Part shown: one piece after another, positions 11,832-55,963 of the stretch
Layout of the letters: each line of letters begins with the position of its first letter
Position numbering within the stretch: position 1 is the first letter of the stretch
Source: an uncultured delta proteobacterium
Lineage (GTDB): Bacteria > Desulfobacterota > BSN033 > UBA1163
Direction of reading: 5' to 3'
Length of the DNA: 64,000 bases
NCBI GenBank assembly: GCA_963711845.1
Contig: CAVQFR010000007.1
Coordinates: 2,165 to 66,164 of the forward strand
Notes under the pieces: generated by a model
Told to the model about the DNA's origin: nothing
The model's database searches: none
What the model saw: only the letters and a program-made list of their open reading frames with translations
Made by a program: the position numbers and the translations under genes

Positions 11832-11910
11832 CTCGGACGGACACATCTCGGAGGCAGTTGGCAGGTGGATTTCAGAGAGAAAGATGAATTCTCAGAAAGG
11901 AGGATTTAGG

Positions 11911-17726: not shown

Positions 17727-19001
17727 TTAGGGCCAAGCTGGCAAGTTTATATTATTGACGCGAGTGAGCACCAGTTGATGGTCGTTTAGCGTGCGTGTGG
17801 CGAATCCGGCCTCACAATAAGAGAAATAGTAAAGCCACTTTCTCTGGAACTCTTGGTCAAAGCCCATTTGAGAAATTGCATCCTGAGCGGACTGGAAACG
17901 TTGACGCCAATGTCTCAGAGTCAGAGCATAGTGAAAACCCACATTTTCCAGGTTCTCAACTACAAAGCTCGAGTAGGCAGTCATAGCTTGGCAGAGCGCG
18001 GTTAATGATGGGAGAAGTCCACCCGGAAAGATGTGTTTCGGAATCCAGCCACAGCGCTTCCGATAAGCGTCATATTCCTGATCAGGATAGGTGATGACCT
18101 GTAGCACCAGGAGCCCGTTGGGTTTGAGTAGCCGGTCACAGCACTGAAAAAAGGTTCCCAGATACGCATGTCCGACAGCTTCCAGCATCTCGATAGAGAC
18201 AATCTTATCGAAATGTCCGTGTACCTCACGGTAATCGGCATGAAGGATCTTGATTCGGTGATCGAGCCCTTCCTGGCGAACCCGGTCTCGGGCTAAACGG
18301 TACTGCGCTTCAGAAACAGTAATTCCAGTAACGCGACAGCCAGTTCTCCTAACCGCCTCGATGGCAAAGCTGCCCCAACCGCACCCGATTTCGAGAACAT
18401 GATCGCTAGAATCAATACGGGCCTTATTTATGATGGCGATGAGCTTGTTTAATTGGGCCGTCTCAAGGGTGTCGCTGGGAGAGAGATATAGCCCGCAGGA
18501 ATATGTCATCGATACATCCAGAAAGAGCTGGAAGAAGTCATTGCTGATGTCATAGTGGCGTTCAATATTCTTCCGTGCTCCTGAAAGGGTGTTTTTTTGT
18601 GTTAGATACCTCAAACGATTGAGAGCCCGCAACACACAAGCTGTTCGGAATTGTCCATCTGAAACGGCATCTTTGTTTTCAATAAATAGCCGAATCACCC
18701 CAGTCAGGTCGCTCGAATCCCAGTATCCTGCCATATAGGCTTCACCAAACCCTACGTCTCCTTCAAATAGGCACCGGGAGAAAAAATTATAATTTTTGAT
18801 CGTAAGGTCTGCCTTTAGGGAGGAACTCTTATCTCCATAAGTGCGCGCCTCGCCATTTGGGAGGTATACCGTTAACACACCCCGTCGTAAACGCGCAAAA
18901 ACTCCAAGAAGAACCGTCATGCATGGCTTCTGTATAAAAGTAGGCTGGTTTCTACGAATCGTCATTTCACTTCGAGGTAGAGGTTTAATACACATCGCCA
19001 A
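17727..19001 (-). CDS. cfa: Cyclopropane-fatty-acyl-phospholipid synthase family SAM-dependent methyltransferase
   Basis: 424 aa with the SAM motif VLEIGCGWGSFAIEAV and the CFA/mycolic-acid-synthase family C-terminal region. The true start is probably the internal MTIRRN at ~18965. Confidence 0.8.
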   Translation of the reverse strand: MAMCIKPLPRSEMTIRRNQPTFIQKPCMTVLLGVFARLRRGVLTVYLPNGEARTYGDKSSSLKADLTIKNYNFFSRCLFEGDVGFGEAYMAGYWDSSDLTGVIRLFIENKDAVSDGQFRTACVLRALNRLRYLTQKNTLSGARKNIERHYDISNDFFQLFLDVSMTYSCGLYLSPSDTLETAQLNKLIAIINKARIDSSDHVLEIGCGWGSFAIEAVRRTGCRVTGITVSEAQYRLARDRVRQEGLDHRIKILHADYREVHGHFDKIVSIEMLEAVGHAYLGTFFQCCDRLLKPNGLLVLQVITYPDQEYDAYRKRCGWIPKHIFPGGLLPSLTALCQAMTAYSSFVVENLENVGFHYALTLRHWRQRFQSAQDAISQMGFDQEFQRKWLYYFSYCEAGFATRTLNDHQLVLTRVNNINLPAWP

Positions 19002-19018
19002 GTTGTTTCGGAATACAC

Positions 19019-20764
19019 TTATTCTGAAAGATGGCCAGCGAGTTTTTCTGGCTGGTGGACTGTAATCCCTGATGGCCTTACCGCCTTGGCACTGGTTTCA
19101 TAGAAGGTTGGCGGTTCATACGTATGTCCAGCTGCAAGACGGTTTTTTTCCCTCCTAAGAAGATACAAAATACAGCGCCCAACAATGGGAGCCACAATCC
19201 AGGATTTTAATCCGAACTCACGGTAGATATCTTTCAGTATATCCGTCATCTTCTTCACGATTCCGGGATTTTCCTTGAACCAGCACCGGCCCGCCCATAG
19301 GCCCGCAGCATAAAGGGTCGCCATCTCTTCAACTTCTCTGGTAAATCTTTTACGAATTCGGGCTTCCGGATGATTCTTGTTCTTCATCCAGCCGTTCATT
19401 AATGTGCGCATCATACGCATTACACTTGGGCCATTCACTTCAAAGTCACGTTGGAAAGCTCGCAGCAAGAACTCACCTTCCTGCCCGTCCTTGATGTGAG
19501 GATGACGATAGTTGAATCGGAATTGTCCGTGAGCATCTGCCTCTTCAAGCTCAGATTCATCCAAAAGATCCCCTCTTTCCTTTAGAATAGCGCGCAGCGG
19601 AGAGCCATGTACAGCTGTATATAACATAAATTGATGAAAATCGGTTTCGTGGCCCACAGCCCAATCGATAGCCTCATCGATGTTTTCCGGCGTGTGCTCC
19701 CCTAAGCCTATTATAGTCGATCCCAAGACCCGGATGCCATTTGCCTGTAACTCGCGAACAAAAGATCGAGTGTCACAGCCTTTAACCTTCCCATATCTGC
19801 TGTTTTCGCCCTCTAATCCAATCCATACCCAGGATATCCCTAAACCCACCAACTGCTCCATTGAATAGTTTCTCAACGCGTCTATTGAACTAAATACATA
19901 TAGCGCCCAAGCCTTTTCATGTTCTTTCATCAGATCCAACAAACGCAATGCCCGCATTCGATGCAAAAGGAAATTCTCGTCCATCACGATAAAGGACCCC
20001 ACGCCCATTTCCTGCTCTAATTGGCACGCGATGTCGAACAACTCATCGCCTGTTTCATAGAAATTGACAAATCTTCCCTTCCCACCGAACATGGCCGAGG
20101 TCGCACAAAAATTACACCCGATCGGACAACCGACGGAAGGGATAAGCACTGCAGCAGTTCCGCGATTGCCACTAGTGAGGGTTATACCCATGCAGCGCGG
20201 ATCTATTGCAGAAATAATTTGTGGATGGTTGATAGGCTGGTTCTGTTCTCCACCTAGAAACCTCCTAAACCATCGCACACCATCGCCGCGTACCACATAG
20301 TCAGCATCAATCCTATCACCAAGGTCCGCCATATTGGCGATATACCCGCCAACCACAATAGTGGTGCCAGGCTGGCGCTCACGAATGATCGCGCACATCT
20401 TTTCCACTTTTTTGACGTTTGCCGGGATTGCGCTGATTCCAATGATATCGTATTTTTTGTCTTCGATCTCCTGGACAAAACGATCAAGAGTTGGATAATC
20501 GAGCAGCGTACAGGGCGCACCAACGTTTGCCTGAATCAATATCAGTCCGCAACTCCGGTGAAACATTCGAGGTGAAAAAGGACCTTGAACTCTTGTAACC
20601 TGGTTATGGTACAATTCCATCGGGTTGAGTGTGCGGCTTCCGTACTCATCGTCCTGTGCATAAGGGCCAAAGACGCTTGTCAAGAGAACCTTCGCACAGG
20701 AGCCAAGTGGGTGGGCTTCCTGGTGGTTAAGACTGGCTGGATCGTTGACGTCACAAACCTTCAT
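19019..20764 (-). CDS. B12-binding (class B) radical SAM enzyme
   Basis: 581 aa. N-terminal cobalamin-binding Rossmann-like region and the radical SAM cluster motif CPIGCNFCATS. It is immediately upstream of, and co-directional with, the cfa-like gene (17 nt gap). Confidence 0.75.
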   Translation of the reverse strand: MKVCDVNDPASLNHQEAHPLGSCAKVLLTSVFGPYAQDDEYGSRTLNPMELYHNQVTRVQGPFSPRMFHRSCGLILIQANVGAPCTLLDYPTLDRFVQEIEDKKYDIIGISAIPANVKKVEKMCAIIRERQPGTTIVVGGYIANMADLGDRIDADYVVRGDGVRWFRRFLGGEQNQPINHPQIISAIDPRCMGITLTSGNRGTAAVLIPSVGCPIGCNFCATSAMFGGKGRFVNFYETGDELFDIACQLEQEMGVGSFIVMDENFLLHRMRALRLLDLMKEHEKAWALYVFSSIDALRNYSMEQLVGLGISWVWIGLEGENSRYGKVKGCDTRSFVRELQANGIRVLGSTIIGLGEHTPENIDEAIDWAVGHETDFHQFMLYTAVHGSPLRAILKERGDLLDESELEEADAHGQFRFNYRHPHIKDGQEGEFLLRAFQRDFEVNGPSVMRMMRTLMNGWMKNKNHPEARIRKRFTREVEEMATLYAAGLWAGRCWFKENPGIVKKMTDILKDIYREFGLKSWIVAPIVGRCILYLLRREKNRLAAGHTYEPPTFYETSAKAVRPSGITVHQPEKLAGHLSE

Positions 20765-28775: not shown

Positions 28776-30450
28776 TCACCACTGAATTCCTTTCTTCTTA
28801 AGATAGCTTTGCGCATCATTGTTTCCTAAACTCGCAGCCTTTTTCAAATCTTCCAGAGCTTGTTCTGTTCTGCCAAGTTTCAAAAATGTATACCCCCGCT
28901 GTAAAAAAGATCAGGGAGGACGTCGGATCGAGTTTAATCGCTTTGTCAAAATCTTTAATAGCATCTTGAAGTTTATTCAATGAGGCGAGGGCCATCCCTC
29001 TTCTAAAATTAGCATATGAAAACTCAGGGTCGAGCTCAATTGCCTTATTGGCATCCTCCAGTGCTTGATGATAGTTTTTCAACATGAAATAGGCCCAGCT
29101 CCGATGGCAATAGGCATATACATAAGCCGGGTTAAGTTTTATTGCTTTATTTAGGTCCTCAATGGCCTTCTGGTAGTTGAGCAAACCAATATGGGCCCAT
29201 CCCCGGGTATTAAAGCCCCAGGCAAGGTTTGGGTCAAGTTTGATAGCCTGTTCGCTCTCGCTAAGGGCTTGTTGGTGTTGCCCCCAATCATTGTAGATTG
29301 CGGCTCTTCCGGCATAAGGTTTTGCAAAATTAGGATCGATCTCGATTGCCTTATCGAAGGCTTTCATAGCCTCTTGGTTCTTCTTATCTCTGTATCTCAA
29401 TGCATACCCTTTTTTAAACCAATCCACCGCGTTCAATTCGTTAACAGCTTTAGCGTATTTCTCTTGGCTGACTTTCTCTCCTTCGCCTTTCCCCATCTCT
29501 TTTTTCAATTTCTCAATCTCTTTTAGCGCCTCTTCCGTTTTTTTCTTCATCTCTTCCAAAGTCTTACTCTGCTCCTGATCCCTACGAACAATATCCATTG
29601 ATCTTGCTAATTCATCAGTTACTTGAACCTTTGGAGCAGGGGAAAGAGCGGGTTTTGAGATTTTTTCGGGGGATGGAGGTGGTTTCTTCTCTTTGGGGAC
29701 AACTTCTGGTGAAGGAGGCACGGTTGCTAAGGGCTTTTCAGGTAAGGGAGCTGTGATTTTCTCTTTAAAGGCTACCTCTGGTTGTGGGGTAGGGGAGATA
29801 TAAAATTTCCAGATCATCATAGCAGCAACTACCACAATCGCAGCGACCACAAAACCTAAAGCAGCCCTCTGCCATTGTGTGGGTTTAGCCTTTTTTTGGG
29901 TGGTTGCTTCCGGCTCAATTTGCGCCCCGTAAACCCGCACCGGCTTGATAATGTTCTTGACCTGATGCTCCCCCAGATACTTGTACCTCAAAGGCAGCTT
30001 GTTCTCGATCTGCTCGAATGCGCTCCCCGAGATACATATCCCTCCCGCCTCGGCCAAGCCTTCCAGCCGGGCCGCAATGTTCACTCCATCACCGTAGATC
30101 GCATTCCCTTCCTCGATTACATCCCCCAGGTTGATCCCAATCCGAAACGCCATCCTGCGGCTCTCAGGCAGCATGGCGTTCTTCGCCCTGAGCACCTGCT
30201 GGATCTCCACCGCACACTGCACCGCATCTACTACGCTCACAAACTCAGCCAGAACGTTGTCCCCAAGGGCGTCCACAATCCGCCCTCGGTGCTGCTGAAT
30301 GAGGCCCCTCATCATACCCTTGTATGTGTTCAGGGTATGGACGGTCCACTCTTCGTCCTCTCCCATGAGGCGGCTATACCCCTTCACATCTGCACTCAGG
30401 ATGACAGTGAGTTTACGTTTCACTTCTTGTGTGTTCATGGAGTCCTCCAT
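28776..30450 (-). CDS. Membrane-anchored class III nucleotidyl cyclase with C-terminal TPR repeats (paralog 1); one frame change in a T6 run at ~28905
   Basis: The ORF spans 28816-30450. The cyclase domain has the metal-binding Asp residues (ILSADVKGYS, DALGDNV). It has one TM helix (ALGFVVAAIVVVAAMMIW), a Pro-rich linker, a coiled coil and 5 or more TPRs. The ORF tail becomes nonsensical after AIKLDP. Shifting one base in the tttttt run restores a TPR ending …LQRGYTFLKLGRTEQALEDLKKAASLGNNDAQSYLKKKGIQW, with a stop at 28776-28778. The likely start is the second Met (MNTQEVKRKLT). Confidence 0.75.
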
Positions 30451-31966: not shown

Positions 31967-33860
31967 TCACTTCAAGCCCGCCTTGCGCAGGGCACCAATA
32001 TGGCGATCCAAATCGGCCTGATTCTTGAAGAGGAGTGCTTTTGCATGATGTTCAAGAGAAAACTTGGGATCTATCTTCAGGACCTCTGCGACCTCATCCT
32101 GAGCTTCCTTCTCACGGCCCATCAAACTATAAGTGGCGGCTAAGCCCAAGCGAGGCATCGTACTATCAGGGGCGCGATGGAGAGCTTTCTTATATCCCTT
32201 TATCGCCTCTTCATACCGCCCCAATTGAACATAGGAAGAGGCCAACATTTGAGAATACCAGGCCGGGAAAGGATTGAGACGTATTGCCTTCTGATACATT
32301 GCAATCGCTTCCTCAAACCTTCCAGCATAGTATAAACTATAAGCCAATGCCGCCTGGACAAAATCTGAATTGGGATCGAGGGCGAGCGCCCGTTCCCCTT
32401 CTGCAATAGCCTTTTCGTACTGCCTTTTACCCAAAGAGATTCTTCCCAAAAAGGCGTGGCGCTTTTCCCGAAGAGTCGTCAAGGACGAGGGCCTTCTGTA
32501 CGCTTTCTTCTGCACGTCTTAGAGATTTTTCAGGGGATTCAGTTGTTCCATAACTCAAATCCATGATGAGAGTCGCGCCCAGGCGTAAGTAGGCTTCTGC
32601 ATATTTCGGGTCGAGAGCAATAGCTTCCTCTGCATATCTTCGGGCTTGGATATTACCCTCTTTAGTGAATCGACCTGACTGATGGGCTGATTGCAAGAGC
32701 TTCAAATATGCCTCAAGGTTGTCCGTGCCTTTTATCGGTAGGCCGGATCGTTCTACCCCCTCCAGCTTAACCTGGAGGGCAGATATGATCCTCAGCGTAA
32801 TCTCATCCTGTAAAGCAAAAATGTTTTTCAGATCTCGGTCGTAGCGTTCAGCCCATAAGTGGTGTCCCGTAAGGGCATCGATGAGCTGTGCGGTAATCCT
32901 CACTTTGTCGCCCGATTTGCGGATGCTTCCCTCCAGGACATACCGCACACCCAGTTCCTCGCTCACCTGCTTGACTTTCACGGGCTGACCTTTATAGGTG
33001 AAAGTTGATTGCCTTGAAATCACAAATAAGTGGGGAACCTTGGAGAGAGCGGTGATGATTTCCTCAGTGATTCCATCGCTAAAATACTCCTGCTCTTTGT
33101 CACCACTCATGTTGACAAACGGCAGCACAGCAATGGAGGGTTTGTCAGGCAAGGGGAAAGCCATTTTTTCTTTTGAGGCAACCTCAACTGGAGGACGAGT
33201 AGGGTGAAGGTATAAACGCCAAATTACAACAACTGCGGCTACTACAATTAGAATTGCTACAAGAATTGAAACTGGATTCTGCCATTTTCTTGGTTTAGCC
33301 TTTCTCTCACCGATCACCTTGCCAGCTCCCTCCGGCTCCATCAGAACTCGATAGACTCGTATGGGCTCTGCGATGTTCTTAACCGCTTGCTCCTCAAGAT
33401 ACTTATATCCAAGGTTTAACTTGTTCTTAACTTGATCAAAGGCAGTTCCAGAGATACAGATACCTCCTGCTTCAGACAGACTCTCTAAACGCGCTGCAAT
33501 ATTGACTCCGTCCCCCAAGATCTGCTCCCCATCCTCAATCACATCCCCAAGGTTGATCCCGATGCGAAACTCCATCCTGCGGTTCTTGGGTAACTCAGCA
33601 TTTCGGGTTTTGAGGTCCTCCTGAATATCGACAGCACACTCAACCGCATCGACCACACTGGCAAACTCGGCCAGGACATTGTCCCCAGGAGAGTCCACCA
33701 CTCGAGCCCGGTGTTGCCCCACCAAGTTCCGAATGACCTCCTTGTATGTCTTCAGAGTCCGGACAGTCCACTCCTCGTCTTCCCCCATGAGGCGACTGTA
33801 CCCCTTCACATCGGCACTGAGAATGGCAGTTAGCTTACGCTTAATTTCTTGGGTGGTCAT
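31967..33860 (-). CDS. Membrane-anchored class III nucleotidyl cyclase with periplasmic TolB-N-like domain and C-terminal TPR repeats (paralog 2); one frame change near 32470
   Basis: The 477 aa ORF holds the cyclase (MTTQEIKRKLTAILSADVKGYSRLMGEDEEW … VDSPGDNVLAEF … GGICISG), one TM helix and a TolB-N-like domain (LPFVNMSGDKEQEYFSDGITEEIITALSKV … QLIDALTGHHLWAERYDR). The 182 aa ORF holds the TPRs. The two overlap at 32427-32515. The shift occurs at gcgccacgcc. Confidence 0.75.
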
Positions 33861-33916: not shown

Positions 33917-36900
33917 CTATTTTCGCTCTTCTATGGAAGACAGGGCCTCTTTAGCCTGTTTCAGGAACCCTTCGGCCTCGGTTTGTTCAAAGATCTGGAT
34001 AGCCTCGGAGATGTATTCCTTGGCTTGCTCGGTCTTCCCTTTCATCCTATACAGCAAACCCAAATCGAGATAGGCCATCCCCATCATGCCTTTAGCGCCG
34101 ATTTCTTTAGCAACCTCTATTGCTCGATTGAAATGTTCTTCGGCCTTCTTGCTGGCGAACGGGACGTTCTTAACGAGAAAGCCTATATTCTTAGCCATTG
34201 TTGATAGACTGATCGGCCCCGATCCCTCCACAATCTGAGAATAGACCTTCCCCAGGGCATACTCGGACCGGGCATAATGGGGTCGCCACTGGTTTTCCAG
34301 ACATTCTCGTTGTCCCTCTTCCAATAGCTTCAACCCCTGGCTCATCTGGCCTTTGGCAATTAACAACACCCCCATATAAATACACGCCTGTATTCCGATC
34401 CATCCAGCCCCAAACTTCCGGCTGTAGCTCAACACTTCCTCAAGAGCGGTTTCAGCCTTATCCAGCTGGTTGCTGAGCAAATAGCTCAAACCAAGGTTCA
34501 GCCTTAAAAGCTGTGAGTAGAAAGGGTCCACAGCGAGCCGGGTTCCGGTCTCCAGGCATTCAATGGCCGAATGGAAATCACTACGCAAAGCGTAGCCACC
34601 TCCCATAATCCCGTGACCCATCACCAAGCTTCGAATATTTGAATGTCTCTCACCATAGTCCAGAAGGGCTTTCCCGGCTTCAAGGGTCTTTTTCGTCTCT
34701 CCGCTATAATAGTACGCTGCCCCTAATCCGCCAAGGGACTTGAAATACAAGTACGGATCTGACTCGAAAGACCTGGAGATATCCTGGGCCCTCTGTCCAA
34801 AGTCAACCGCTTCTTCCAGAAGGCCCAATCCGGCACAGGTCCAGGTAAGCCAGGTGCAGGCGTAGCCGATCACCCTCCTGTCTTCAATCTCCTCCCCAGT
34901 CTTGAGAGCTTTGCACAAGTATTCATAAGAGCCTTTCGCCTTCCCGCTGCAATGCAAGCCAAAGCCGAGCCATGCATAGAACATCCCGAGTTCGGCCTTG
35001 CCCACGGACTCAGCCAGTCCTTCATGATTGCTGAACAAACTGATGAGGCCCCTGAAATCGCCACGGTAGTAAAAGACATAGGCCCACTTGTTGAGCAGAT
35101 CGATGAGGAGCCTCTTTTCCTCATCCGTCATGGCTGGTTTATTCTTAAGAAGATCGAAAGCCTCTTGATAGTACTGATGGGATTCTTCAATGGCATACCT
35201 TTTGAGACTCTTCTCGCCCGACTTCATAAGATAATCGACGGCCTTGTGTAGAGATTGACCCCGCTTGAAATGAAAGGCCAGGGTCTCATAGAACTCTGAA
35301 AGCCTCTCGCGAAACAACTGCTCCATCACAAGAGCAATTCGCTCATGGACTGCCTGGCGCTCCCTTTTAAGAAGACCGCTGTAAACCACCTCCTGGGTCA
35401 GGGCATGCTTGAAAACATATTCCAGCTCCGGCTGAAAAGACCTTATCCGGATCAGGTCGAACTGCTCCAACCTGTGGAGATGATGGTCCAGCCGCTCCTT
35501 GAACTCCGTGATTTTTGTAAGGATCTCATAGAGAAAGGTCCTCCCAATGACCGAGGCTTCCTGAAGAATGCGCTTCATCTCCTTCTCCAGTCGGTCGAGC
35601 CTTGCGGAGATGACGCCTTGTACTGTTGGAGAAATGTCTGCCTCGCCGATTGGCCGACTTAGCTTCCAGTTGCCGTTGTCGCGGATGAGGGTGCCCGACT
35701 CGATCAGGGAGTTGATAACCTCTTCCAGATAAAAAGGATTACCCTCTACCTTCTCCTGAATGAATTTCCTCAACTCCTGGGGGATGGTCTTGGACTTCAG
35801 CAGAGATTCCATCATGTCCTGGCTATCCGAGGCTGAAAGATCCTGGAGATTGATCTCCTGGTAAGTCTTGCCAAGGGCACCCAACTGATGGCTGGTGAAG
35901 AGGCTAAAAGGAAGCCTGTATGCACAGATAAACAGGACCGGATAACTGAACTCCGATAGAATCGAACGAAGAAGATCAAGGGACGATGGATCTGCCCAGT
36001 GGATGTCCTCCAGACAGATAACCGTCGGGCCACTCTGTGCCAAAGCGGAAAGAATGGCCTGGACTGCTTTTAACAGACTCGATCTCCAGAATTCAGGGCT
36101 CACCCCTTCTATCTCTGGGTAGCTGAGGCTATAAAGGCTCCCTACATAAGGGAGCACATCCTTTTTCTTTCCAATCAGGTTTTCTATACCTGATTCGATT
36201 TTTCCCCTCACTTTTTCTGTAGAATCGCCTTCTTCAATTTGCCAGGTTCGATTCAGGAGATCGATCAGTGGAAAATAGGGAATGTTTTGGGAATAGGCGT
36301 AAGCGTGGCCCTCACGCCATTGGATTTCATTGAGATCCAATGTGGCCCTGAATTCCTCAAGAAGTCGGGTCTTTCCGGTGCCCGCATCACCACAAATAGA
36401 GAAGATTCCCCCTTTGCCCTGACGCAGCCTTTGCACTGCCTCCTGAAGTTGGGCCAATTCCGCCTTCCTGCCGATGAGATCAGCCCTCAACCCAAGGGTA
36501 CGATGCAAAGTAAGCGGCTTCTCCTTGGTAGATAGCAGCCTGTAAACTTGCACTGCCTCTACCTTCCCTTTGATCTGGGCAGGCTCTAACCTTTCAAAAA
36601 CAAAATGCCCTTCTGCCAGCTGATAAGTCACTGAACCCACCAGAATCTCTCCTGCCTTGGCCAGATCGCTCAGCCGAGAGGCCAGATTGATGGTGTCTCC
36701 CAACACGCCCGTAGTGACTCCTTCCTGATCCATCTGACCTGTCACAACGAGACCCGTATTGATGCCGGTGTGCATGGATAAAGATCTTTCAATCCTTTGC
36801 TCAACCCGCGGACTCATCGCCTCTACAAAGGAGTGTATTTCCTTAGCCGCCCGGATGGCCCTTACCGGATCATCTTCGTGGGCCTTTGGCACACCAAAGA

Positions 36901-37267
36901 AGGCCACGACTGCATCACCAATAAATTTTTCAATGGACCCATTGTACTTTTTCACGATAGAGGTAATCTCTGCGAAGACTTGACTCATGATCTCCTTGAC
37001 GTCTTCAGGATCAAGCCTTTCCGACATAGCGGTATAACCTGATAGGTCAGAGAAAAGAACGGTGACCTGCTTTCGCTCCCCCTCAATCTGCGGTTCTATT
37101 CTTCCAATTACTGCTTCTTCTAATTTCTGTCCGCACTCACCGCAGAATTTGTCTGCAGGAAGGTTTTCAAAATGGCAATTGGGGCAGAGCAATATTAGTT
37201 TTGCACCACATTCCTTACAGAACTTTCTTATCTCTGGATTTTCAGTCTGGCATTTCGGACATTTCAT
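33917..37267 (-). CDS. Multidomain signalling protein: N-terminal double zinc ribbon, class III cyclase domain, STAND/AAA+ P-loop NTPase, C-terminal TPR array (1116 aa)
   Basis: Zinc ribbons (MKCPKCQTENPEIRKFCKECG … CPNCHFEN … CGECGQKL). Cyclase (KQVTVLFSDLSGYTA … EKFIGDAVVAFFG … GINTGLVVTG). Walker A (ICGDAGTGKTRLLEEF). Long helical/TPR C-terminus. A 56 nt gap separates it from paralog 2 downstream. Confidence 0.8.
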   Translation of the reverse strand: MKCPKCQTENPEIRKFCKECGAKLILLCPNCHFENLPADKFCGECGQKLEEAVIGRIEPQIEGERKQVTVLFSDLSGYTAMSERLDPEDVKEIMSQVFAEITSIVKKYNGSIEKFIGDAVVAFFGVPKAHEDDPVRAIRAAKEIHSFVEAMSPRVEQRIERSLSMHTGINTGLVVTGQMDQEGVTTGVLGDTINLASRLSDLAKAGEILVGSVTYQLAEGHFVFERLEPAQIKGKVEAVQVYRLLSTKEKPLTLHRTLGLRADLIGRKAELAQLQEAVQRLRQGKGGIFSICGDAGTGKTRLLEEFRATLDLNEIQWREGHAYAYSQNIPYFPLIDLLNRTWQIEEGDSTEKVRGKIESGIENLIGKKKDVLPYVGSLYSLSYPEIEGVSPEFWRSSLLKAVQAILSALAQSGPTVICLEDIHWADPSSLDLLRSILSEFSYPVLFICAYRLPFSLFTSHQLGALGKTYQEINLQDLSASDSQDMMESLLKSKTIPQELRKFIQEKVEGNPFYLEEVINSLIESGTLIRDNGNWKLSRPIGEADISPTVQGVISARLDRLEKEMKRILQEASVIGRTFLYEILTKITEFKERLDHHLHRLEQFDLIRIRSFQPELEYVFKHALTQEVVYSGLLKRERQAVHERIALVMEQLFRERLSEFYETLAFHFKRGQSLHKAVDYLMKSGEKSLKRYAIEESHQYYQEAFDLLKNKPAMTDEEKRLLIDLLNKWAYVFYYRGDFRGLISLFSNHEGLAESVGKAELGMFYAWLGFGLHCSGKAKGSYEYLCKALKTGEEIEDRRVIGYACTWLTWTCAGLGLLEEAVDFGQRAQDISRSFESDPYLYFKSLGGLGAAYYYSGETKKTLEAGKALLDYGERHSNIRSLVMGHGIMGGGYALRSDFHSAIECLETGTRLAVDPFYSQLLRLNLGLSYLLSNQLDKAETALEEVLSYSRKFGAGWIGIQACIYMGVLLIAKGQMSQGLKLLEEGQRECLENQWRPHYARSEYALGKVYSQIVEGSGPISLSTMAKNIGFLVKNVPFASKKAEEHFNRAIEVAKEIGAKGMMGMAYLDLGLLYRMKGKTEQAKEYISEAIQIFEQTEAEGFLKQAKEALSSIEERK

Positions 37268-37296
37268 TTTTGACTCCGGTAATTTGTGTCCTCTTT

Positions 37297-40200
37297 TTAC
37301 AGCTTTTGGAAGAGCTTTTTTGTGCGGGCCAAGTGATAATCCATTCCCATCCTGCTGAACATCTCTTCAGACCTTCTCAGGTATTCAAGGGCTTTTTCCT
37401 TTCTTCCGGCATCCAAATAAAGCTCGCCGAGAGTTAAGCAACCCACAGCATACGCTGGCTTCGTTTCTAGATCATCCAGCATTTTCATTCCTTGCAGAAT
37501 GTACTCTTCTGCCTTATCTATCTGCGATTCTTCCATTTTTCCAACGGTCCTTCCAAGTTGAAGCCATGCCTCTCCTTCAAAATATTTTTCATGGTTCTTT
37601 TGCGCTAGATTCAGAGATCGCTCAGCATGAACTTTTGCCTCATTCAAATTACCCAAATCAAAATGAACCAGACTTAAAGCCCAGAGATGAAGGGACAACC
37701 AACCAGGGGCTCCGATATGCATCTTCATGTTAAGGCCTTTTTCCGCGAATCCCAGGGCTTTGCCAGGATCTCCCATCAAACGATATCCATCCCCAATGAA
37801 GCACCAGGCAAGGGGCAAGAAGAAGACTGCTTTCAATTTTTCAAGGTATCCAATGCTGGTCTCCATATGTTTTGCAGAATTCTCTCCATCGCCTTTAGGG
37901 CTGAATAAACACCCGTACAGGAATTCCGCAATGGCTATGCTATATACGTTATTGGCTTCTTGTGCTAAAGAAAGAGCTTTATTACATGCCTGCTCTCCTT
38001 TTCCAAATTCCCCCACATATCCCAGGCCATGTCCATAGTTGGCATACAAATACGAACGCAGATCAACGGGCATGCCGAATAATTCACCCTGCCTTTGGGT
38101 TTTTTCAAGCGAAGCCAAGATTCTTGGAGTTAAGTGCACCACTTTCCGGTATTCTCCCGCGACATCCATGGAAAAAGTTAGCATCACACCGATCCGAGCC
38201 GTTATTTGACTGTCCTGTAACCGCTCTGCTTCCTCAAAAGCATCCTGCTGATATTTCATTCCCAGCGCAGCATTTCCTTTAGCTGAATAAAAAGAGCCCA
38301 GATGACTGCATAAGATTGCCAAACTTTTTTTGTCCTTAACACCTTTACAAAGCGTCTCTCCCTCCTGGAGTATCTTGAAAGAATCTTCAGGATAAGCTAG
38401 GAGTCTCATCGAATGCGCCGTCGAAAGGATGACTTCAATCTGTTCCTTCTTGTTCTGATCTGTTTCGCCCATTTGCTTGAGGATACCGATCGCATCTCTG
38501 TAAAAACGGAAGGCCTCTGTCGGGGAATAGCTTCTCATGGCTTTGTTGCCTGATAATTTCAGGTATTGGTAAGCCTTTTCTAAGTCATCACTCTTGGAGT
38601 AATGATAAGCTAACATCTCATAGAACTCTTCCAACCTGTCCGGGTAAATCTCTTCGATGGCCCTTCCAATCTTCTCGTGGATCTCCTTTCTCCTCTTGAG
38701 AAGTAAGCTGTTATAGGCCACCTCCTGGGTGAGGGCGTGTTTGAAGATATATTCCAGCTCAGGGAAGAGTCTCTTCTCATAGATAAACTCCAGGCCCTGA
38801 AGGTTTAAGAGATGGGATTTAAGCTCTTCCTTCATCTCCATGATGGCCTGAAGGATACGAAACGCAAACTCTCTCCCAATCACCGATGCCACCTGCATGA
38901 TCCTCTTGAGGCTCTCCTCCAAACGGTCCATCCGGGCCGCTATGATCCCCTGGATGGTATCGGGAACCTGAATATCAGAGGGTTTTTTACTTAATAAATA
39001 GTGATCCCCCTCTCTCCGGATCGTCCCGTTTTCTAACAACGTATGGGTAAGCTCCTCCATGAAGAGAGGATTCCCAGCAGCTTTGTTCAGGATCAATTCC
39101 CTAAGCTCAGGGACGATCTCTCCTTCCTTGAGAATAGACTGAACCAGTTCGGCACTTGTCTGGAGAGAGAGCTGATCTACACGGATGTTGGTGTAATACG
39201 ATTTGCTCCCCCAGCGATGGGTATATTCCGGCCTATAGAGAAGGATCAAGAGAATGGGTGTGTTGGCCAGCCAGCCGATGAAGTAGTCGAGGAACTCTTC
39301 AGAGGTCTTGTCGATCCAGTGAAGGTCTTCGAAAACAAGAACCAAGGGCTTTTTTTGGCTTTCTCGAATCAGTAGATCCCTAATGGCTTCAAAGATCTTC
39401 TCTCTTTTCTGTTTGGGCTCAAGCTTAAGGTGGGCTTCATCATCTACTTTAAGAGAGAGAAGCTCTTGGAAAGGTGAGAGCGCACTTTTAAGCTTCTCAT
39501 TAAGCTGAAAGACTTTCTCTTTTATCTTCCTCTTAATAGAAAACTCCTGCTCCCCTTCTTTGATCTCAAAATATGATCTCAGGATATCCAGTATGGGCAG
39601 GTAGGCTATCGAGCCTCCGTAGTGGAGGCACCGTCCTTCGAGGTAAACGTATTCTTCTCTTTGGAACATCTTCCTCGTCTCAAAGATGATCCTTGACTTC
39701 CCCACTCCAGCTTCGCCCACGACCCCTACCATCTGCCCGGACCCGGATCGAACCTTTTCCAAAGCCTCTTGGAGAAATTCCATTTCTCTCTTTCTGCCAA
39801 CAAATTTCGTAAGGCCTGCCACAGCAGCCGCTTCGATCCTTGTTTTTACTTTACTGGGCATTAAGAGCTCATAGGCTTCTTGAAGCTCCTCTTTCCCCTT
39901 CACCTGGACCTTGCCCAATGACTCGAACTTGAAGAAATCTTTTGCAAGTTTGTAAGTATGTCCTGATACTAAAATGGTGCCAGGCTTTGCCGTGTTCTCC
40001 ATCCTGGAAGCAAGGTTAGTGGTATCACCGACCGCTGTGTAATCCATCCGCAAATCATCCCCGATTGAGCCTACCACTACCGGCCCGGAGTTGAGCCCCA
40101 TACGCATTCTAAAATCAAATCCGGACTCCCTCTTCACTTTTTCCCCGTACTCCACCAGGGCCTTTTGAATCGACAAGGCAGCATAGCAGGCCCGTTGAGC

Positions 40201-40663
40201 ATGGTCCTCATGAGCTACAGGTGCACCGAAAAGAGCCATCACTCCATCCCCCGTAAACTGATTGATGGTCCCTTCGTATTTGTGAATCTCATCCATTGAA
40301 ATCCTGAAACATCCGTCCATGATTTGATGGACCTCCTCTGGATCGAGCTTCTCAGACATGGAGGTGTAATTGAGCCACATCCGCAAAGAGCACCGTTACA
40401 AGTTTCCGTTCACCTTCGATAGAGCTGCGGGTAGTGAGGATCTTATCAGCCAAGAATTTGGGGGTGTAGGATTTGGGCTTTGAGTAGTCGATAGGAGGAG
40501 CTTCTTTACGCTTCTCAAGAGCAGTCCCGCACTCACCGCAGAATCTGAATTGGGGCGGATTAAAAAAATTGCAGTGCGGGCAGACCTTTTCTAACTTAGT
40601 TCCACATCCTCCACAAAATTTCATGCCTTCAGGGTTTTCAGTCGAACATTTCTTGCACTTCAT
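37297..40663 (-). CDS. Second double-zinc-ribbon / cyclase / STAND NTPase / TPR protein, tandem paralog; one frame change at ~40352-40386
   Basis: The 103 aa ORF holds the zinc ribbons (MKCKKCSTENPEGMKFCGGCG … CPHCNFFN … CGECGTAL) and the start of the cyclase (GERKLVTVLFADV). It overlaps the 1029 aa ORF, which holds the rest of the cyclase (GDGVMALFG), the Walker A (VVGEAGVGKSRIIFE) and the TPRs. It lies 29 nt upstream of 33917-37267. Confidence 0.75.
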
Positions 40664-40766: not shown

Positions 40767-42245
40767 TTAGAAGACATCCTCGACACCTTTTTTCAAAGGG
40801 ATCCTTAATGAAAAGATCGTTCCGGAAGCAAAACAATCTGACCTGTTGCCGATAAACTGACAGAGAGATATCCGCCCCGGGCATTCATCGATGTCCTCTG
40901 GGATGTAGCTGCAACGGGTGCTCTCGAAATCGATTTCGAAACCATAACGTTCTGAAAATACCTTGGCCCTAAGAAGGTCTGCGCCGGAACCGCCGGCATT
41001 GAAGTCGTAGGGAGCCTTCGTAGAGTAATAGTTTGTATCCTGGGTGTGAAAGAAGCCGGTGAGCACCAGTCTTTGGTTCTCGGCTGTAATTCCGGTGCCA
41101 AAGTCCCGAAAACGGATAACCATTTGGTCACCCTCGATTTTGGCCGTCACTTCAATCCTACCCTGGTCAGGAGTATTCTCGACGGCATTTTTCAGTATGC
41201 CGCTGCATACCTTCTCAAGGGCACTCCGATTTGCAATGATCGTCACCCCCTTGTCGAAATCCTGGACGATCTCTACTTCTCTTTGCCCCATGGCTCTGCG
41301 GGTGTCGTCACATATGGACTGGAGAAAGTCCTCGACGAAAAGCTTCTCTGTACGTTCCTCGCCAACTTTGTAGATCGAATCGAGGTAATCCGAAAGGAGA
41401 TTGAGCACCTTGCTGTACTTGCCTCGACGCACTCCGTTCTGGTATTCAATGAAATGAAGGGCATTCTCGATGATCTTAGTAATTTTTGTCCGGTCTTCTA
41501 CCGATCTTTCTCTGATGATGTTGTCAATCTCCTCCTGAAGTCGCATCAAGCGATGTAGATTCCTTTGGGCGATGATCACGCTCCTCTCCAGTCCGGTGAT
41601 CTTTGCCTGGCTGAGCCCACTTGAAATCCTAGCAAACGTGGCTGAGATAAGGGCAAGGGGCGTTGCCAACTCGTGAGAAAGATGGTTGATTGCCCTCTCT
41701 TTCGCCTTGTTCATCGACTTCAACTCCTCGTAGAGCCTGGAGTTTTCAAGGGCGATGGTGGCATAGTCCGCGATGGAGGAGAGCATTTCCACATCGTCGT
41801 CCGTGAAATTTCCCCTGTTCTTATTCAGAGCCTGAAGGGTTCCCACGCACTCCTTCTGTCTGTTGATCAACGGGACACAGAGGATGTTTCTTGTCCGGAA
41901 ACGTGTTTTTTCGTCCACGTCGGCATCGAACCGTGGATCACTGGACGTGTCATTGACGATGGTGGGGGCTCGGTTCTGGAACACCCAGCCTGCTATCCCG
42001 TACGTTGCAGGGATCCGGATCTCGTTCTTCTTGAGGTCCGTCGAGACGAGGGACCATAGTTCGTTAGGTTTCTTGTCGTACAAGAATATGGAACTCGCCT
42101 GGGTGTCCATGATACCGTTCGTGTGTTGGATAATAAGAGGAAAGAGTGCCTCCAGATTCATCTCCGACGTAATGATCTGACCCACCTGGAGAAGTTTCGC
42201 GTAACGCTCGACTTTCTGTTCCACTGTATAATCCCTTACCCTCAT
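40767..42245 (-). CDS. GAF-domain sensor histidine kinase with a C-terminal Cys-rich extension (paralog of 22072-23535)
   Basis: 492 aa. GAF region, H-box (INHLSHELATPLALI), N box (ILKNAVENT), G box (DFGTGI). The tail is CSYIPEDIDECPGRISLCQFIGNRSDCFASG. It lies ~100 nt upstream of the tandem cyclase genes on the same strand. Confidence 0.8.
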   Translation of the reverse strand: MRVRDYTVEQKVERYAKLLQVGQIITSEMNLEALFPLIIQHTNGIMDTQASSIFLYDKKPNELWSLVSTDLKKNEIRIPATYGIAGWVFQNRAPTIVNDTSSDPRFDADVDEKTRFRTRNILCVPLINRQKECVGTLQALNKNRGNFTDDDVEMLSSIADYATIALENSRLYEELKSMNKAKERAINHLSHELATPLALISATFARISSGLSQAKITGLERSVIIAQRNLHRLMRLQEEIDNIIRERSVEDRTKITKIIENALHFIEYQNGVRRGKYSKVLNLLSDYLDSIYKVGEERTEKLFVEDFLQSICDDTRRAMGQREVEIVQDFDKGVTIIANRSALEKVCSGILKNAVENTPDQGRIEVTAKIEGDQMVIRFRDFGTGITAENQRLVLTGFFHTQDTNYYSTKAPYDFNAGGSGADLLRAKVFSERYGFEIDFESTRCSYIPEDIDECPGRISLCQFIGNRSDCFASGTIFSLRIPLKKGVEDVF

Positions 42246-42246
42246 G

Positions 42247-42422
42247 TGGGGCCCATTTTCAGAAGCTTCCGGGCTTCTTGTAGATCGAACTCTGCCCCGA
42301 TTTCGGCGAAGATTGCTTCAGCTTTTTCTAGATGGGCGCGATCCTTGAATGTGTTTTGCCCCACATTCCTTACAGAACTTCTTTGTCTCCGGATTTTCAG
42401 CCTGGCATTTCGGGCATTTCAT
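42247..42422 (-). pseudogene. Deletion remnant of a zinc-ribbon / cyclase / STAND / TPR paralog: first ~25 codons fused to a C-terminal fragment
   Basis: ORF reads MKCPKCQAENPETKKFCKECGAKHIQGSRPSRKS*, nearly identical at the DNA level to the 5' end of 33917-37267. A +2 frame reads …KAEAIFAEIGAEFDLQEARKLLKMGPT*, which resembles the extreme C-terminus of the 1116 aa protein (…AIQIFEQTEAEGFLKQAKEAL…). Confidence 0.5.
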
Positions 42423-42697: not shown

Positions 42698-44608
42698 TCA
42701 CTTCAGTCCCGCCTTGCGCAAGGCGTTAACAACTTTATCTATTTCTGATTGATCCTTATAGGGAGTGACTGTCTTTGCAAAGTAATCCAGTGAGAACTTT
42801 GGATTTATCCTGAGGACTTCTTCAGCCTCAGCACGGGCCTCCTTCTCTCGACCCATCATACTGTATGTAGTCGCCAGACCAATATGGGCAATGATGATGA
42901 TCAGGCGCACGCTGAAGTGCCTTTCTTATATGCCGAAACCGCCTCTTCAAACCGACCCGTCATCCGGAGGGCATGGCCAAAGTATACAAAGGTATAGGCC
43001 GCAGCATTGGGGTTGAGTCGGATTGCTTTTTGGAACATTGGAATGGCTTCCTCCGGCCGGCATGCAAAGAGCAGGGCCGAGGCATATGCAGCATAGGCAC
43101 CCGATCCGCTGGGATCGAGGGCTACAGCCCGTTCCCCTTCAGCAATCGCCTTGTCATACTCCCTTTTGTAATATAGAGAACAGTCAACATGATGTGGGCA
43201 ATGGGTATGGAATCATCCATGGCAAGGGCTTTTTTCGCCAGCTCTTCAGCTTTCTCAAGAGTCTCCCGAGGGGACTTCGTGTTGCCAAGCTAATAATCGG
43301 TCATGTAGACCCCACTGAGTTGGGCATAACCTACTGGATTTTCTGGACACATTGAAATAGCCTCCTCTGTAAGCCGCCGAGCCACGTTGTTGTCCTCGAT
43401 ATTGAGACGGTCACTGTATTTGGCCGCCTCCATTAGCTTCAACATAGCAATCGAAACCTTGCTTCCCCCTGTAGTATTTCGAGTACGCCGAGGATATTTC
43501 CCCCTCCGTCAGCTTCACTCGGATGGCCGTCAAGATCTTCATGGTGATCTCATCCTGCAGGGCAAATAGGTCTTTCAGATCACGATCGTACCGCTCTGCC
43601 CAGAGGTGATGTCCTGTGAGGGCATCGATCAACTGGGCATTAATCCGGATGCGGTCAGCAGACCTCTGAACGCTCCCCTCCAGCACATACCGAACCCCAA
43701 GCTCCTCGCTCACCTGCTTAACCTTCACAGGTTTGCCCTTATAGAAAAAGGTTGACTGTCTGGATATCACAAATAAGCGGGGAACTTTGGAGAGAGCGGT
43801 GATGATGTTCTCGGTGATCCCGTCACTAAAAAACTCCTGTTTGGGGTCTTCGCTCATGTTCACAAAGGGCATTACGGCAATAGAGGGCACATCGGGCAAG
43901 GGAAACGCCATCTTTTCTTTGGAGGCGACTTCAATCGGAGAAGTGGGACGTAAGTATGAGCGCCAGATCACAACAATTGCGGCTACTACAATTAGGATTG
44001 CTATAACAATGAAAGCCGTCTTCTGCCATTTTGTTATAGCAGCCTTTTTCTCTGCGGCGATACGGGGGACAGCAGCCCCAGGCTCCAATAGAACACGATA
44101 CACCCGCACCGGCTTGGCGATGTTCTTAACAGCCTGTTCCCCAAGAAATTCATATCCAAGAGATAATTTATTCTCCACCTGATCATAAGCTGTTCCGGAT
44201 ATGCAGATGCCTCCTGCTTCGGAGAGACTTTCCATACGGGCCGCAATGTTGACTCCATCGCCGAGGATCTTATCCCCCTCCTCGATTACATCCCCAAGGT
44301 TGACACCAATTCGAAACTCCATCCGGCGGTTTTCAGGTAATTCTGCATTTCGAGCTTTAAGTTCTTTTTGGATCTCAACAGCACACTCAACCACATCCAC
44401 CACGCTGGCAAACTCGGCCAATAGATTATCCCCTGGGGCATCGACCACTCGGCCATGGTGTTGCTGAATGAGGTTGGTCATCACCTCCTTGTAAGCATTC
44501 AGGGTGTGAACGGTTCCCATTCTCATCTTCTCCCATGAGACGACTATAACCCTTCACATCGGCACTGAGGATGGCAGTGAGCTTACGTTTAACTTTTTGG
44601 GTAGTCAT
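42698..44608 (-). pseudogene. Degraded third paralog of the membrane cyclase / TolB-N-like / TPR gene, with multiple frame disruptions
   Basis: Fragments in three frames. The N-terminus is MTTQKVKRKLTAILSADVKGYSRLMGEDE. The cyclase core is VDAPGDNLLAEF…GGICISG, with a TM helix and TolB-N-like domain (…QLIDALTGHHLWAERYDR). The TPR tail is …GLATTYSMMGREKEARAEAEEVLRINPKFSL…RKAGLK. At least 4 frame breaks (near 44520, 43400, 43200 and 42900) and missing residues. Confidence 0.6.
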
Positions 44609-45069: not shown

Positions 45070-45834
45070 ATGAAAATCAAGGTACTCGGGTGTTCAGGCG
45101 CAGAGTTTCCTAACCATCATTTTTCAAGTTTCTTAATAGATGGCAAAATCTTATTCGACGCTGGGAGTGTAACGGATGTCCTCAGCGAGAAAGATCAGCT
45201 GAAGATCAAAAGTATTTTTGTGACCCATGCCCATCTAGATCATATAAAAGGAATCCCTTTTCTCGCGGATAATATCCTCATCGGAAATAAACAGGGGAGG
45301 GTTGATATCTTCAGCATCCAACCTGTGATCAAAGCAATCAAGGAGAGTCTCTTGAATGATGTCGTATGGCCCGATTTTACCAAGATTCCACGTGGCCTTG
45401 GTAGCATCTTGAGGATGAACAAACTGAAGCCTGGCGAACCCGTCAGAATTGACGGTTATTGCATTGTACCTTTTGAAGTTAACCACGCTGTCCCTGCGGT
45501 GGGATATCTCGTCGAGAGCCAAAAAAAGAGGCGGCTCTTCTACAGTGGCGACACAGGACCCACTGACAAGACATGGAAGGAAATTGCAGTGAAGATCGAT
45601 TGTCTTATCCTTGACGTTACTTTTCCGAATAAAATGGCAAGAGAGGCGATCAGAACAGGACATTTGACTCCGTGCTTATTAAGAATGGAGCTTTCAAAAA
45701 TGAAAAATATGCCTGAAAGGATTTATGTCACACATGCAAAACCCCAGTACTCGGAGACCATCGCCTCAGAACTGAAAAGACTTAGGATCAATCATCTTAG
45801 GTTATTGAAAGACGGAGAATCTATCGAGCTTTAG
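45070..45834 (+). CDS. Class II 3',5'-cyclic-nucleotide phosphodiesterase (CpdP-like, metallo-beta-lactamase fold)
   Basis: 254 aa. N-terminus KVLGCSGAEFP. Class II PDE signature H-x-H-L-D-H (FVTHAHLDHIKGIPFL). SD gagggga upstream. Confidence 0.7.
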   Translation: MKIKVLGCSGAEFPNHHFSSFLIDGKILFDAGSVTDVLSEKDQLKIKSIFVTHAHLDHIKGIPFLADNILIGNKQGRVDIFSIQPVIKAIKESLLNDVVWPDFTKIPRGLGSILRMNKLKPGEPVRIDGYCIVPFEVNHAVPAVGYLVESQKKRRLFYSGDTGPTDKTWKEIAVKIDCLILDVTFPNKMAREAIRTGHLTPCLLRMELSKMKNMPERIYVTHAKPQYSETIASELKRLRINHLRLLKDGESIEL

Positions 45835-55311: not shown

Positions 55312-55963
55312 ATGGCAATGGCAGAGGATGCAACAAAAATTGGTGTGATCGTCGTGGATATTCAGGGAGACTTTACAAAACTGAAGAACGGCTCCCTGGC
55401 CGTGGATGGAACAGACGAAGCCTATATTAAAACCGTGGAGGAAAATACAAAGAGACTGAAAGAAGCAGGTTTTCCGATTTACGCCACTCAGGATTGGCAT
55501 CCTGCCGATCACATTTCTTTCTTTACCAATCATCCAGGGAAAAAGGCTTTCGATGTGATTCAGCTTCATGAAAAGGACCAGGTCCTCTGGCCGCCCCATT
55601 GCGTGCAAAAGACTCCCGGAGCAAAGATCTTATTGGATCACAAATTATTTACAGGGGTCACGAAAAAGGGGATGGATCCACAATATGATAGTTATTCTGG
55701 TTTTCAGGATGATGGCGGGAAAAAGACTGACCTGGATCGAGCTTCTCAAAAAGGATGGGATTAGAAAACTGGTCGTCTATGGTATTGCAACCGATTACTG
55801 TGTCAGGGCGACCTCACTGGATGGAGTGGCAGCAGGATATAAAGTCGTTTTAATCAAGAATCTCTGCAGGGGAGTCGCGCCGGATACCTCTCAAAAGGCG
55901 ATTGAAGAGATGAAGGCAAAGGGGATTGTCGTCCTGGACAATTTGGATTTAGAAAAGATATGA
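55312..55963 (+). CDS. pncA: Nicotinamidase / isochorismatase-family hydrolase; frame change in an A5 run at ~55725
   Basis: N-terminal ORF: IVVDIQGDFT…YATQDWHPADHISF (catalytic Asp, Lys and His context). Second ORF: LVVYGIATDYCVRATSLDG (catalytic Cys). The reading frames join across gggaaaaagactgac. Confidence 0.65.

Follow-up and report, generated by a model that had tools for sequence, protein, structure and literature searches.

Tandem zinc-ribbon class III cyclase–STAND–TPR proteins in a deltaproteobacterial cyclic-nucleotide signalling cluster

We analyzed a stretch of 64,000 nucleotides (nt) from contig CAVQFR010000007.1 of an uncultured delta proteobacterium (assembly GCA_963711845.1), hereafter called the window, with a focus on the two adjacent minus-strand genes P1 (33917–37267) and P2 (37297–40663). 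Both encode large proteins that combine a double zinc ribbon, a class III cyclase domain, a nucleoside triphosphatase (NTPase) of the STAND type, and a tetratricopeptide repeat (TPR) array. We interpret P1 and P2 as soluble one-component signalling enzymes that are old paralogs, reside in a cyclic-nucleotide cluster, and have a proposed STAND-gated mechanism; to this reading we assign a probability of roughly 0.7. Judged from the protein families involved, the most likely mechanism would be a ligand-gated, ATP-dependent oligomerisation that pairs the cyclase domains. P1 and P2 are not a new system; they are ordinary members of a very large, catalogued, and biochemically unstudied bacterial family.

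Domain Architecture of P1 and P2

P1 is an intact open reading frame (ORF) of 1116 amino acids (aa), and its orthologs at 95% identity, retrieved by database search, are intact as well. Its N-terminal double zinc ribbon (37130–37267; aa 1–46) matches PF12773 (DZR, residues 3–46, 1.5e-10), and zinc binding is predicted from two CxxC...CxxC knuckle pairs formed by cysteines 3, 6, 17, 20, 28, 31, 42, and 45. A linker (aa 47–63) connects the ribbons to the class III cyclase homology domain (36527–37078; aa 64–247), which is recognized by PF00211 (Guanylate_cyc, residues 65–242, 4e-23). The nucleotide-binding oligomerisation module (35369–36478) opens with an AAA_16 P-loop domain (aa 264–447; PF13191, 5.5e-25, 89.2 bits at a cutoff of 32.6), including Walker A (GDAGTGKT, 36368–36391) and Walker B (hhhhED, 36005–36022), and continues with helical and winged-helix parts up to about aa 633. 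The remainder (33920–35368; aa 634–1116) forms a TPR-like sensor array of about 24 helices with matches to TPR_12 and to TPR_MalT, the latter under its cutoff (39.9 versus 45).

P2 is the same four-part gene and encodes 1121 aa after removal of one base. When both of its ORF pieces are combined, the Pfam domain set equals that of P1, comprising the zinc ribbons (40526–40663), the cyclase domain (39859–40411), and the NTPase with Walker A (GEAGVGKS, 39694–39717) and Walker B (hhhhED, 39325–39345). Scores exceed the cutoffs in both proteins for PF00211 (82.3 bits in P1 and 85.7 bits in P2; cutoff 21.9) and PF12773 (41.5 and 48.6 bits; cutoff 27.3). No helix-turn-helix (HTH) family is among the Pfam matches of P1 or P2, and TPR-like helices reach the last residue of the P1 structure model. 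An initial annotation, made from the sequence alone, had proposed the four-part architecture and the lack of an HTH, and Pfam bears out both. It had also described two adjacent paralogs 29 nt apart. The genes do share a strand and are separated by a 29-nt spacer (37268–37296, minus; AAAGAGGACACAAATTACCGGAGTCAAAA), but P2 is not a single ORF here, and its frameshift had been missed.

P1 and P2 share only 32% identity over their full length and are therefore old paralogs; a recent duplication is ruled out by this value. Their order and 29-nt spacing recur in the related stretch L003. L010 also has a 29-nt gap between tandem copies, but both copies carry the Lys/Gly substrate pair described below and do not form a P2–P1 pair. 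A promoter and terminator scan gave signals at or below shuffle expectation and was uninformative.

Conservation of Catalytic and Nucleotide-Binding Residues

Key residues were placed by alignment to CyaB (3r5g), Cya2 (2w01), and the Cya2-derived 6fht, and their conservation was determined in a census of 226 full-length relatives. P1 possesses the metal ligands D74 and D118, the transition-state residues N194 and R198, and K114/G187 at the substrate positions. P2 has equivalent metal and transition-state residues, with Q135/T209 at the substrate positions. Both metal Asp and the Arg are invariant (226/226), and the Asn is found in 225 of the 226 relatives. The Walker A residues G, G, G, and K are likewise invariant and the Walker B Glu-Asp is nearly so, which indicates selection on both enzymatic activities. 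The eight ribbon cysteines are kept in 212–223 of the relatives, the rest being gaps. The alignments and the census thus place the catalytic and Walker residues in both proteins, in agreement with the cyclase and P-loop assignments of the initial annotation.

The substrate positions divide the relatives into types. The Lys/Gly (K/G) pair occurs in 109 of 111 P1-type proteins, and P2-type proteins have Gln/Thr (Q/T) in the 90 closest and Lys/Thr (K/T) in 23 more distant members. Given this distribution, the Gln represents a conserved, derived state and not decay. In the wider family, residues at the substrate Lys position differ widely (K, Q, R, D, N, H, and E), and a few members are without the catalytic set. 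The K/G pair of P1 is also that of the Cya2 construct 6fht, whose entry says adenylate/guanylate cyclase. Going by the Lys at the purine-selecting position, P1 is most likely an adenylyl cyclase that makes cyclic adenosine monophosphate (cAMP); the Gln at the same position suggests that the specificity of P2 may be relaxed or different. Castro et al. reportedly observed in 2005 that Rv0386 of Mycobacterium tuberculosis, with a Gln-Asn pair, has adenylyl plus some guanylyl cyclase activity. The Gln state of Rv0386 is echoed in a recent preprint (bioRxiv 10.1101/2024.03.06.583649). P2 shares this Gln at the Lys position, but the second substrate residue is Thr in P2 and Gly in P1, not Asn; exactly the Q/N pair is present in an actinobacterial relative (L072).

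Predicted Fold

An AlphaFold2 model of P1 (143 sequences) reached a mean predicted local distance difference test (pLDDT) value of 80.6. The ribbons scored about 76 and were followed by a disordered linker stretch (aa 51–63) of about 32. The cyclase and P-loop domains were confident, the winged-helix part (aa 546–614) was less so, and the roughly 24 helices from aa 634 to the end were very confident, mostly with pLDDT > 90. According to this model, the zinc ribbons are a separately folded, tethered N-terminal module with a possible role in interaction or redox sensing. In a Foldseek search against the PDB, the cyclase domain matched CyaB (3r5g) with a template modelling (TM) score of 0.89, and also Cya2. 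The remainder of P1 matched 6mfv, a STAND protein with TPR (E 2e-10, 873 columns), with low TM scores of 0.19/0.29 because the domain orientation differs, and the array matched the TPR proteins LGN/Pins. For the NTPase module, sequence searches of the PDB gave no solved relative, with cyclase and TPR matches dominating the profile search. Structure prediction and domain searches of each region uphold the cyclase and P-loop assignments.

The Frameshift in P2

P2 is split in the window into an ORF of 103 aa (40352–40663), which terminates with LFADVAQLHLHV and a stop codon, and a second ORF of 1029 aa from TTG (37297–40386), which restarts inside the cyclase domain (...NYTSMSEKL). The break is a single-base insertion (40372/40373, minus) inside the metal-Asp motif FADVA|NYT, where L003 has GTGGC-CAATTAC and the window has GTGGCTCAATTAC. 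The extra base is that in GTGGC[T]CAATTAC, and deletion of one base yields the 1121-aa protein. L003 (JGI Ga0566185_0005052) is 97% identical to the window at the DNA level over 6.9 kb and encodes an intact 1121-aa P2, the 29-nt spacer, and a P1 ortholog; the insertion is the sole indel in this alignment, which reveals no further P2 lesion. Three additional proteins (P0121–P0123) are 98% identical to P2, intact, and 1121 aa long. The only truncated entry, P0124 (1027 aa, 100% identical, from an NCBI/ENA contig of 198 kb), is evidently the gene call of this very assembly.

About eight frameshifts, including that of P2, were identified in the 64 kb, each a singleton within otherwise conserved coding sequence. 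They affect a hybrid histidine kinase (724–1940, minus), whose HisKA and HATPase_c domains lie on overlapping ORFs (1512–1940 and 724–1608), an isochorismatase domain in two halves (55312–55764 and 55568–55963, plus), another STAND gene encoding a STAND-TPR-BTAD protein in three pieces (2225–5593, plus), and two neighbouring cyclase genes of a second family, copy A with one break and copy B with two. One of the breaks in copy B, a 1-nt insertion at 44514, is not present in any of five relatives aligned across the site. Intact P2 genes at 97–98% identity, together with these singleton breaks in unrelated genes, argue for assembly indels. The P2 break is thus most likely an assembly error and P2 is probably intact in vivo; the frequent single-base frameshifts suggest an indel-prone assembly.

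The breaks could also mean that P2 is a real, recently inactivated pseudogene within a cyclase cluster that, in this organism, decays as a whole. Such decay would fit the accumulation of frameshifts in P2 and in copies A and B and the adjoining bona fide relic of a further family member. In addition, the P2 insertion lies outside any homopolymer, which leaves room for a real recent mutation and is the point against our reading of P2 as intact. However, unrelated genes in other parts of the window have equivalent frameshifts, P2 has no second lesion and is otherwise nearly identical to intact orthologs, and the insertion at 44514, too, is seen in this assembly but in none of the five relatives aligned there. 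We therefore regard decay as unlikely, although it deserves consideration. A programmed frameshift was ruled out, as there is no slippery motif at the insertion site and the relatives are in frame.

A Chromosomal Cluster for Cyclic-Nucleotide Signalling

P1 and P2 are set in a chromosomal cluster that is devoted to cyclic-nucleotide signalling. The window is chromosomal, with genes for ferrochelatase, uroporphyrinogen decarboxylase, an amine-oxidase-type protein, Lnt, an M17 peptidase, an aminotransferase, and several kinases. Three copies of the second cyclase family flank the pair on the minus strand. Copy A (31967–33860) has the order cyclase, transmembrane segment, FlgO-like domain, and TPR; with one frameshift near 32450, it spans two frames, as revealed by tblastn with a 631-aa protein of L001. 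Copy B (42701–44602) contains two frameshifts, and copy C (28816–30450) encodes 544 aa with cyclase and TPR. Between P2 and the relic lies a histidine kinase gene of the GAF/HisKA/HATPase_c type (40767–42245, minus; Pfam GAF 9.7e-18, HATPase_c 7e-10), whose linkage to family genes is kept in relatives and whose product is a candidate reader of the cyclic nucleotide. A gene for a metallo-beta-lactamase (MBL)-fold protein (45070–45834, plus) has the signature of class-II cAMP phosphodiesterases (PF02112, 5.7e-12, 45.8 bits at a cutoff of 23.7) and a match to NF041851 under the cutoff (2.3e-10).

Some further features of these neighbours were recorded. Proteins of the second cyclase family are about 630 aa long, with one transmembrane segment and a FlgO/TolB-like domain, and are related to the L001 protein and weakly to TIGR04510; in copy A, Asp apparently replaces the substrate Lys, as judged by eye. 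The MBL-fold gene is oriented divergently and adjoins the cyclase cluster. A PDZ-GAF-SpoIIE phosphatase (13184–15697, plus) is a further GAF-containing signalling protein in the window.

Elsewhere, the family gene mostly occurs singly. We surveyed 118 neighbours from 30 other genomes, and no family recurred more than four times. A solo gene with no recurring partner points to a self-contained signalling protein rather than to a defence system. The commonest neighbours elsewhere are radical SAM and methyltransferase genes, with only 3–4 of the 118; the window itself has a B12-binding radical SAM gene beside a cyclopropane-fatty-acid-synthase-like methyltransferase gene (17727–20764, minus).

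A Relic of a Deleted Family Member and Cluster Turnover

Directly upstream of the GAF kinase gene, we identified the relic of a deleted family member (42242–42422, minus). A Shine–Dalgarno (SD) sequence and an ATG are followed by 23 codons from zinc ribbon 1, to which a TPR tail of about 35 codons is attached out of frame. The first part is a 34-codon ORF that starts with ATG at 42422, and its opening 23 codons match positions 1–23 of the family hidden Markov model with 43.9 bits. The tail, in the +1 frame, reads FKDRAHLEKAEAIFAEIGAEFDLQEARKLLKMGPT before its stop codon and matches the last 30 positions of the family TPR profile (370–400 of 402). Its TGA overlaps the ATG of the kinase gene (ATGA), which indicates that a family gene was once translationally coupled to the GAF kinase.

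The same junction is present in L106, L087, and L094, whose kinases are about 88–93% identical, which marks the deletion as old. In two of these, L087 and L094, the reading frame of the kinase includes the ribbon piece, and the kinase thereby has an N-terminal zinc ribbon. L085, L086, L088, and L089 have the relic cut down to ATGAA plus the tail and also keep about 100 nt upstream; the SD sequence is kept wherever the leader is present. The relic was probably retained as the source of expression signals for the kinase gene, and from its sequence it looks like a gene fragment reused as the leader of this gene. The initial annotation had listed a third copy reduced to a 58-codon remnant at 42247–42422. 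The relic itself is real, but that interval comprises 176 nt, which is no whole codon number, and spans two frames.

The content of the cluster varies among close relatives. L003 has the order X–P2–P1, with X designating a paralog that is not in the window, L116 has kinase–X–P1, the window and L085 have kinase–P2, and L086 has kinase–X–another paralog. The kinase is not visible in L003, as the contig begins inside X. The ongoing turnover claimed earlier therefore holds in that copy number differs between close relatives, but the relic is no example of it, being old and common to relatives with GAF kinases of 86–95% identity. Paralog X measures about 1175–1185 aa (L003 2–2824, L086 1922–5443, L116 371–3925, L117 338–3880) and sits between the GAF kinase and the copy that follows (L086, L116), straight after the kinase (L117), or straight upstream of the P2 ortholog (L003).

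Size and Spread of the Family

Database searches with P1 and P2 returned thousands of matches. The top 240 matches listed range from 61 to 100% identity, and nearly all full-length ones combine DZR, Guanylate_cyc, AAA_16, and TPR; they stem mostly from metagenome-assembled genomes (MAGs) of Thermodesulfobacteriota/Deltaproteobacteria. Existing names are ‘class 3 adenylate cyclase/TPR repeat protein’, ‘AAA family ATPase’, and ‘adenylate/guanylate cyclase domain-containing protein’. A scan of P1 residues 1–460 against 1.84 billion cluster representatives retrieved 14,463 clusters at 50% identity (E ≤ 1e-30). The N-terminus differs among the best 150 matches, which have two ribbons, one (match from residue 26–28), none, or an extra domain of 400–500 residues. 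With one genome per species, at least 566 stretches encode relatives, and about 58 of the 80 loci kept contain ribbon, cyclase, and NTPase. The phyla include Thermodesulfobacteriota, Methylomirabilota, Rokubacteria, Chloroflexota, Actinomycetota, Planctomycetota, and Bacteroidota, and among the cultured hosts are Cupriavidus necator, C. oxalaticus, Pseudomonas sp. ACN8, and Variovorax. The zinc ribbons, which had been seen as an addition to a known architecture, are indeed present but not unusual. Likewise, the expected search of other genomes found the architecture in many phyla, but no defence-island setting among the 118 neighbours. Our literature search found the Rv0386 group and soluble adenylyl cyclase, and no dedicated study of the ribbon-bearing form. 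As a side observation, a 2431-aa ORF in a Candidatus Edwardsbacteria MAG (L021 6323–13618) is apparently made of two family units fused head to tail.

Relation to Known Proteins and Proposed Mechanism

Several known proteins share parts of the architecture. Rv0386, Rv1358, and Rv2488c of M. tuberculosis (class IIIc cyclase, MalT-type ATPase, TPR, and LuxR HTH) resemble P1 and P2 in the N-terminal cyclase, the AAA_16/MalT-type NTPase, and the TPR-like repeats; the domain content thus supports the kinship with cyclase-ATPase-TPR proteins suggested at the outset. Unlike this group, P1 and P2 lack the LuxR HTH and have the double zinc ribbon. In mammalian soluble adenylyl cyclase (sAC, ADCY10), likewise a soluble enzyme of class III, a predicted STAND P-loop region comes after the cyclase (PMC12802110). 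However, sAC has no zinc ribbons and contains two tandem catalytic domains that form an intramolecular pseudo-heterodimer, whereas P1 and P2 have one domain each and must pair between chains. Over 670–930 residues, P1 and P2 match the cyclase-NTPase-TPR core of TIGR03903 (TOMM system kinase/cyclase fusion protein). Its scores of 273.5 and 334.3 bits are far under the cutoff of 705.75, the match starts past the kinase part (model position 274/326), its members have an N-terminal protein kinase where P1 and P2 have zinc ribbons, and no TOMM genes are found near P1 and P2. The closest solved cyclases are Cya2 of Synechocystis (2w01), its Glu-to-Lys derivative 6fht, and CyaB of P. aeruginosa (3r5g), with 31–33% identity and TM scores of 0.83–0.89. 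At the substrate positions, P1 has the Gly of Cya2 and the Lys of 6fht, and P2 has the Thr of CyaB; the regulatory modules at the N-terminus of Cya2 and CyaB are different, and neither has a STAND-TPR part. STAND proteins of the MalT clade (E. coli MalT and Pyrococcus PH0952, which is 6mfv) share the AAA_16 NTPase and the TPR_MalT-like sensor, and 6mfv is the structural match of P1, but the effector of P1 and P2 is an N-terminal cyclase enzyme and not a DNA-binding domain.

In the paradigm of MalT-type STAND proteins, ligand binding leads to ADP/ATP exchange and then to multimerisation. Class III cyclases are catalytic only as head-to-tail dimers, and hence the pairing of cyclase domains creates the active sites. 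On this basis, we infer each step of the following scheme; what the analysis shows directly are the domains, the preservation of residues for catalysis and nucleotide binding, the similarity of folds, and the gene neighbourhood. At rest, the NTPase would be bound to ADP and the TPR arm would keep the protein closed and monomeric. Binding of a ligand to the TPR array would permit ADP/ATP exchange, upon which the NTPase modules would multimerise and bring the cyclase domains together, so that active sites form and cyclic nucleotide is made. The product would most likely be cAMP for P1, and P2 might act with relaxed or different specificity. Local proteins, among them the GAF histidine kinase, could read the messenger, and the phosphodiesterase-like enzyme encoded nearby could remove it. 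This scheme, which we consider the most reasonable reading, corresponds to the hypothesis of the initial annotation minus its immune framing.

Several observations weigh against this interpretation. Purified full-length human sAC showed no regulation by added nucleotides in a 2025 study (PMC12802110), and the STAND switch model is thus not validated for any cyclase. Neither P1 (K/G) nor P2 (Q/T) has the canonical Lys-Asp pair, or the Glu-Cys pair of guanylyl cyclases, so that the product is uncertain from sequence. No zinc-ribbon member has a known enzymatic activity, ligand, nucleotide product, or state of oligomerisation. Finally, no neighbour is conserved across the family, which makes the link to the GAF kinase a local one.

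Alternative Interpretations

The behaviour of sAC also motivates a different view of the STAND-TPR part, namely as a mainly autoinhibitory or scaffolding appendage, with activity set by protein partners or by the zinc ribbons, e.g., through their redox state. The full-length enzyme is about 3-fold less active than its truncated form and insensitive to nucleotides (PMC12802110), and the ribbons of P1 are tethered via a flexible linker. Near-invariance of Walker A and B across the 226 relatives, in turn, argues that nucleotide binding and hydrolysis matter, and we consider an appendage role unlikely, if still credible. More doubtful is a hetero-oligomer of P1 and P2, in which mixed assemblies possibly contain heterodimeric cyclase sites or make two products. 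The conserved P2–P1 order and spacing in L003, tandems of a T-type followed by a G-type copy in L001 and L004, and the distinct conserved substrate pairs of the two clades are in line with this idea. However, the full catalytic set in P1 and in P2 means that neither needs the other, the gene is solo in most genomes, L116 has X–P1 but no P2, and the tandems of L005 and L010 consist of two K/G-type copies. A complementary heterodimer of the C1/C2 type was rejected as unsupported, given that both proteins retain all catalytic residues. An elaboration of the hetero-oligomer idea, in which the product of the Q/T clade would be mixed or not cAMP, P1 and P2 would co-assemble on ligand into a mixed STAND ring (‘cyclasome’) with two messengers read by the GAF kinase, and the ribbons would serve as a redox- or partner-sensitive latch, is in our view improbable.

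Antiphage defence was considered as well, with P1 and P2 as Avs-like sensors whose TPR arm senses a phage protein and whose cyclase makes an alarm nucleotide as in Pycsar. P1 and P2 share the logic of effector, NTPase, and repeat sensor with Avs proteins, in the same order, and resemble Pycsar in the class III-like cyclase as signal generator. The cyclase domains match the PADLOC PycC models (1e-18 to 4e-23), and copy number differs between close relatives, as it does for immune genes. However, the NTPase is of the AAA_16/MalT type, and the PADLOC scan returned only PycC and TPR models, with no Avs model matching either protein and PycC scores no better than the generic Pfam cyclase score. Furthermore, the annotated genes flanking the pair include no Pycsar-type effector (a cyclic-nucleotide-binding domain fused to a transmembrane or TIR part), and the neighbours in the window serve housekeeping and signalling. 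Among the 118 neighbours in other genomes, no recognised family of defence systems recurs; the only possibly related matches are AAA_21 and patatin, with two neighbours each. The analogy to Avs and antiphage proteins drawn in the initial annotation accordingly failed for want of an Avs match, a defence island, and a conserved neighbour. With generic PADLOC matches only and no recurrent partner, we dismissed a role in defence, which is very improbable.

Relevance for Cyclase-STAND Fusions

Cyclase-STAND fusions are widespread, from mycobacteria to human sAC, and to our knowledge no study has demonstrated the way in which the STAND part governs cyclase activity. Being soluble, with a single catalytic domain, very abundant, and present in cultured Cupriavidus and Pseudomonas, this bacterial subfamily would offer a practical model for this question. 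If true, the ‘cyclasome’ would be the first mechanistic model of STAND control of a cyclase and would bear on full-length human sAC. The conserved Gln/Thr and Lys/Gly pairs flag a possible non-standard nucleotide specificity. The locus itself adds no new kind of system; its lessons are an indel-prone assembly, an apparent pseudogene that is probably intact, and a relic kept as the leader of a kinase gene.

Other Genes in the Window

Regarding the remaining genes, a 974-aa protein (7805–10729, plus) has the thrombospondin type 3 repeat as its sole Pfam match. The ORFs beside it (10890–12435) have no family assigned.

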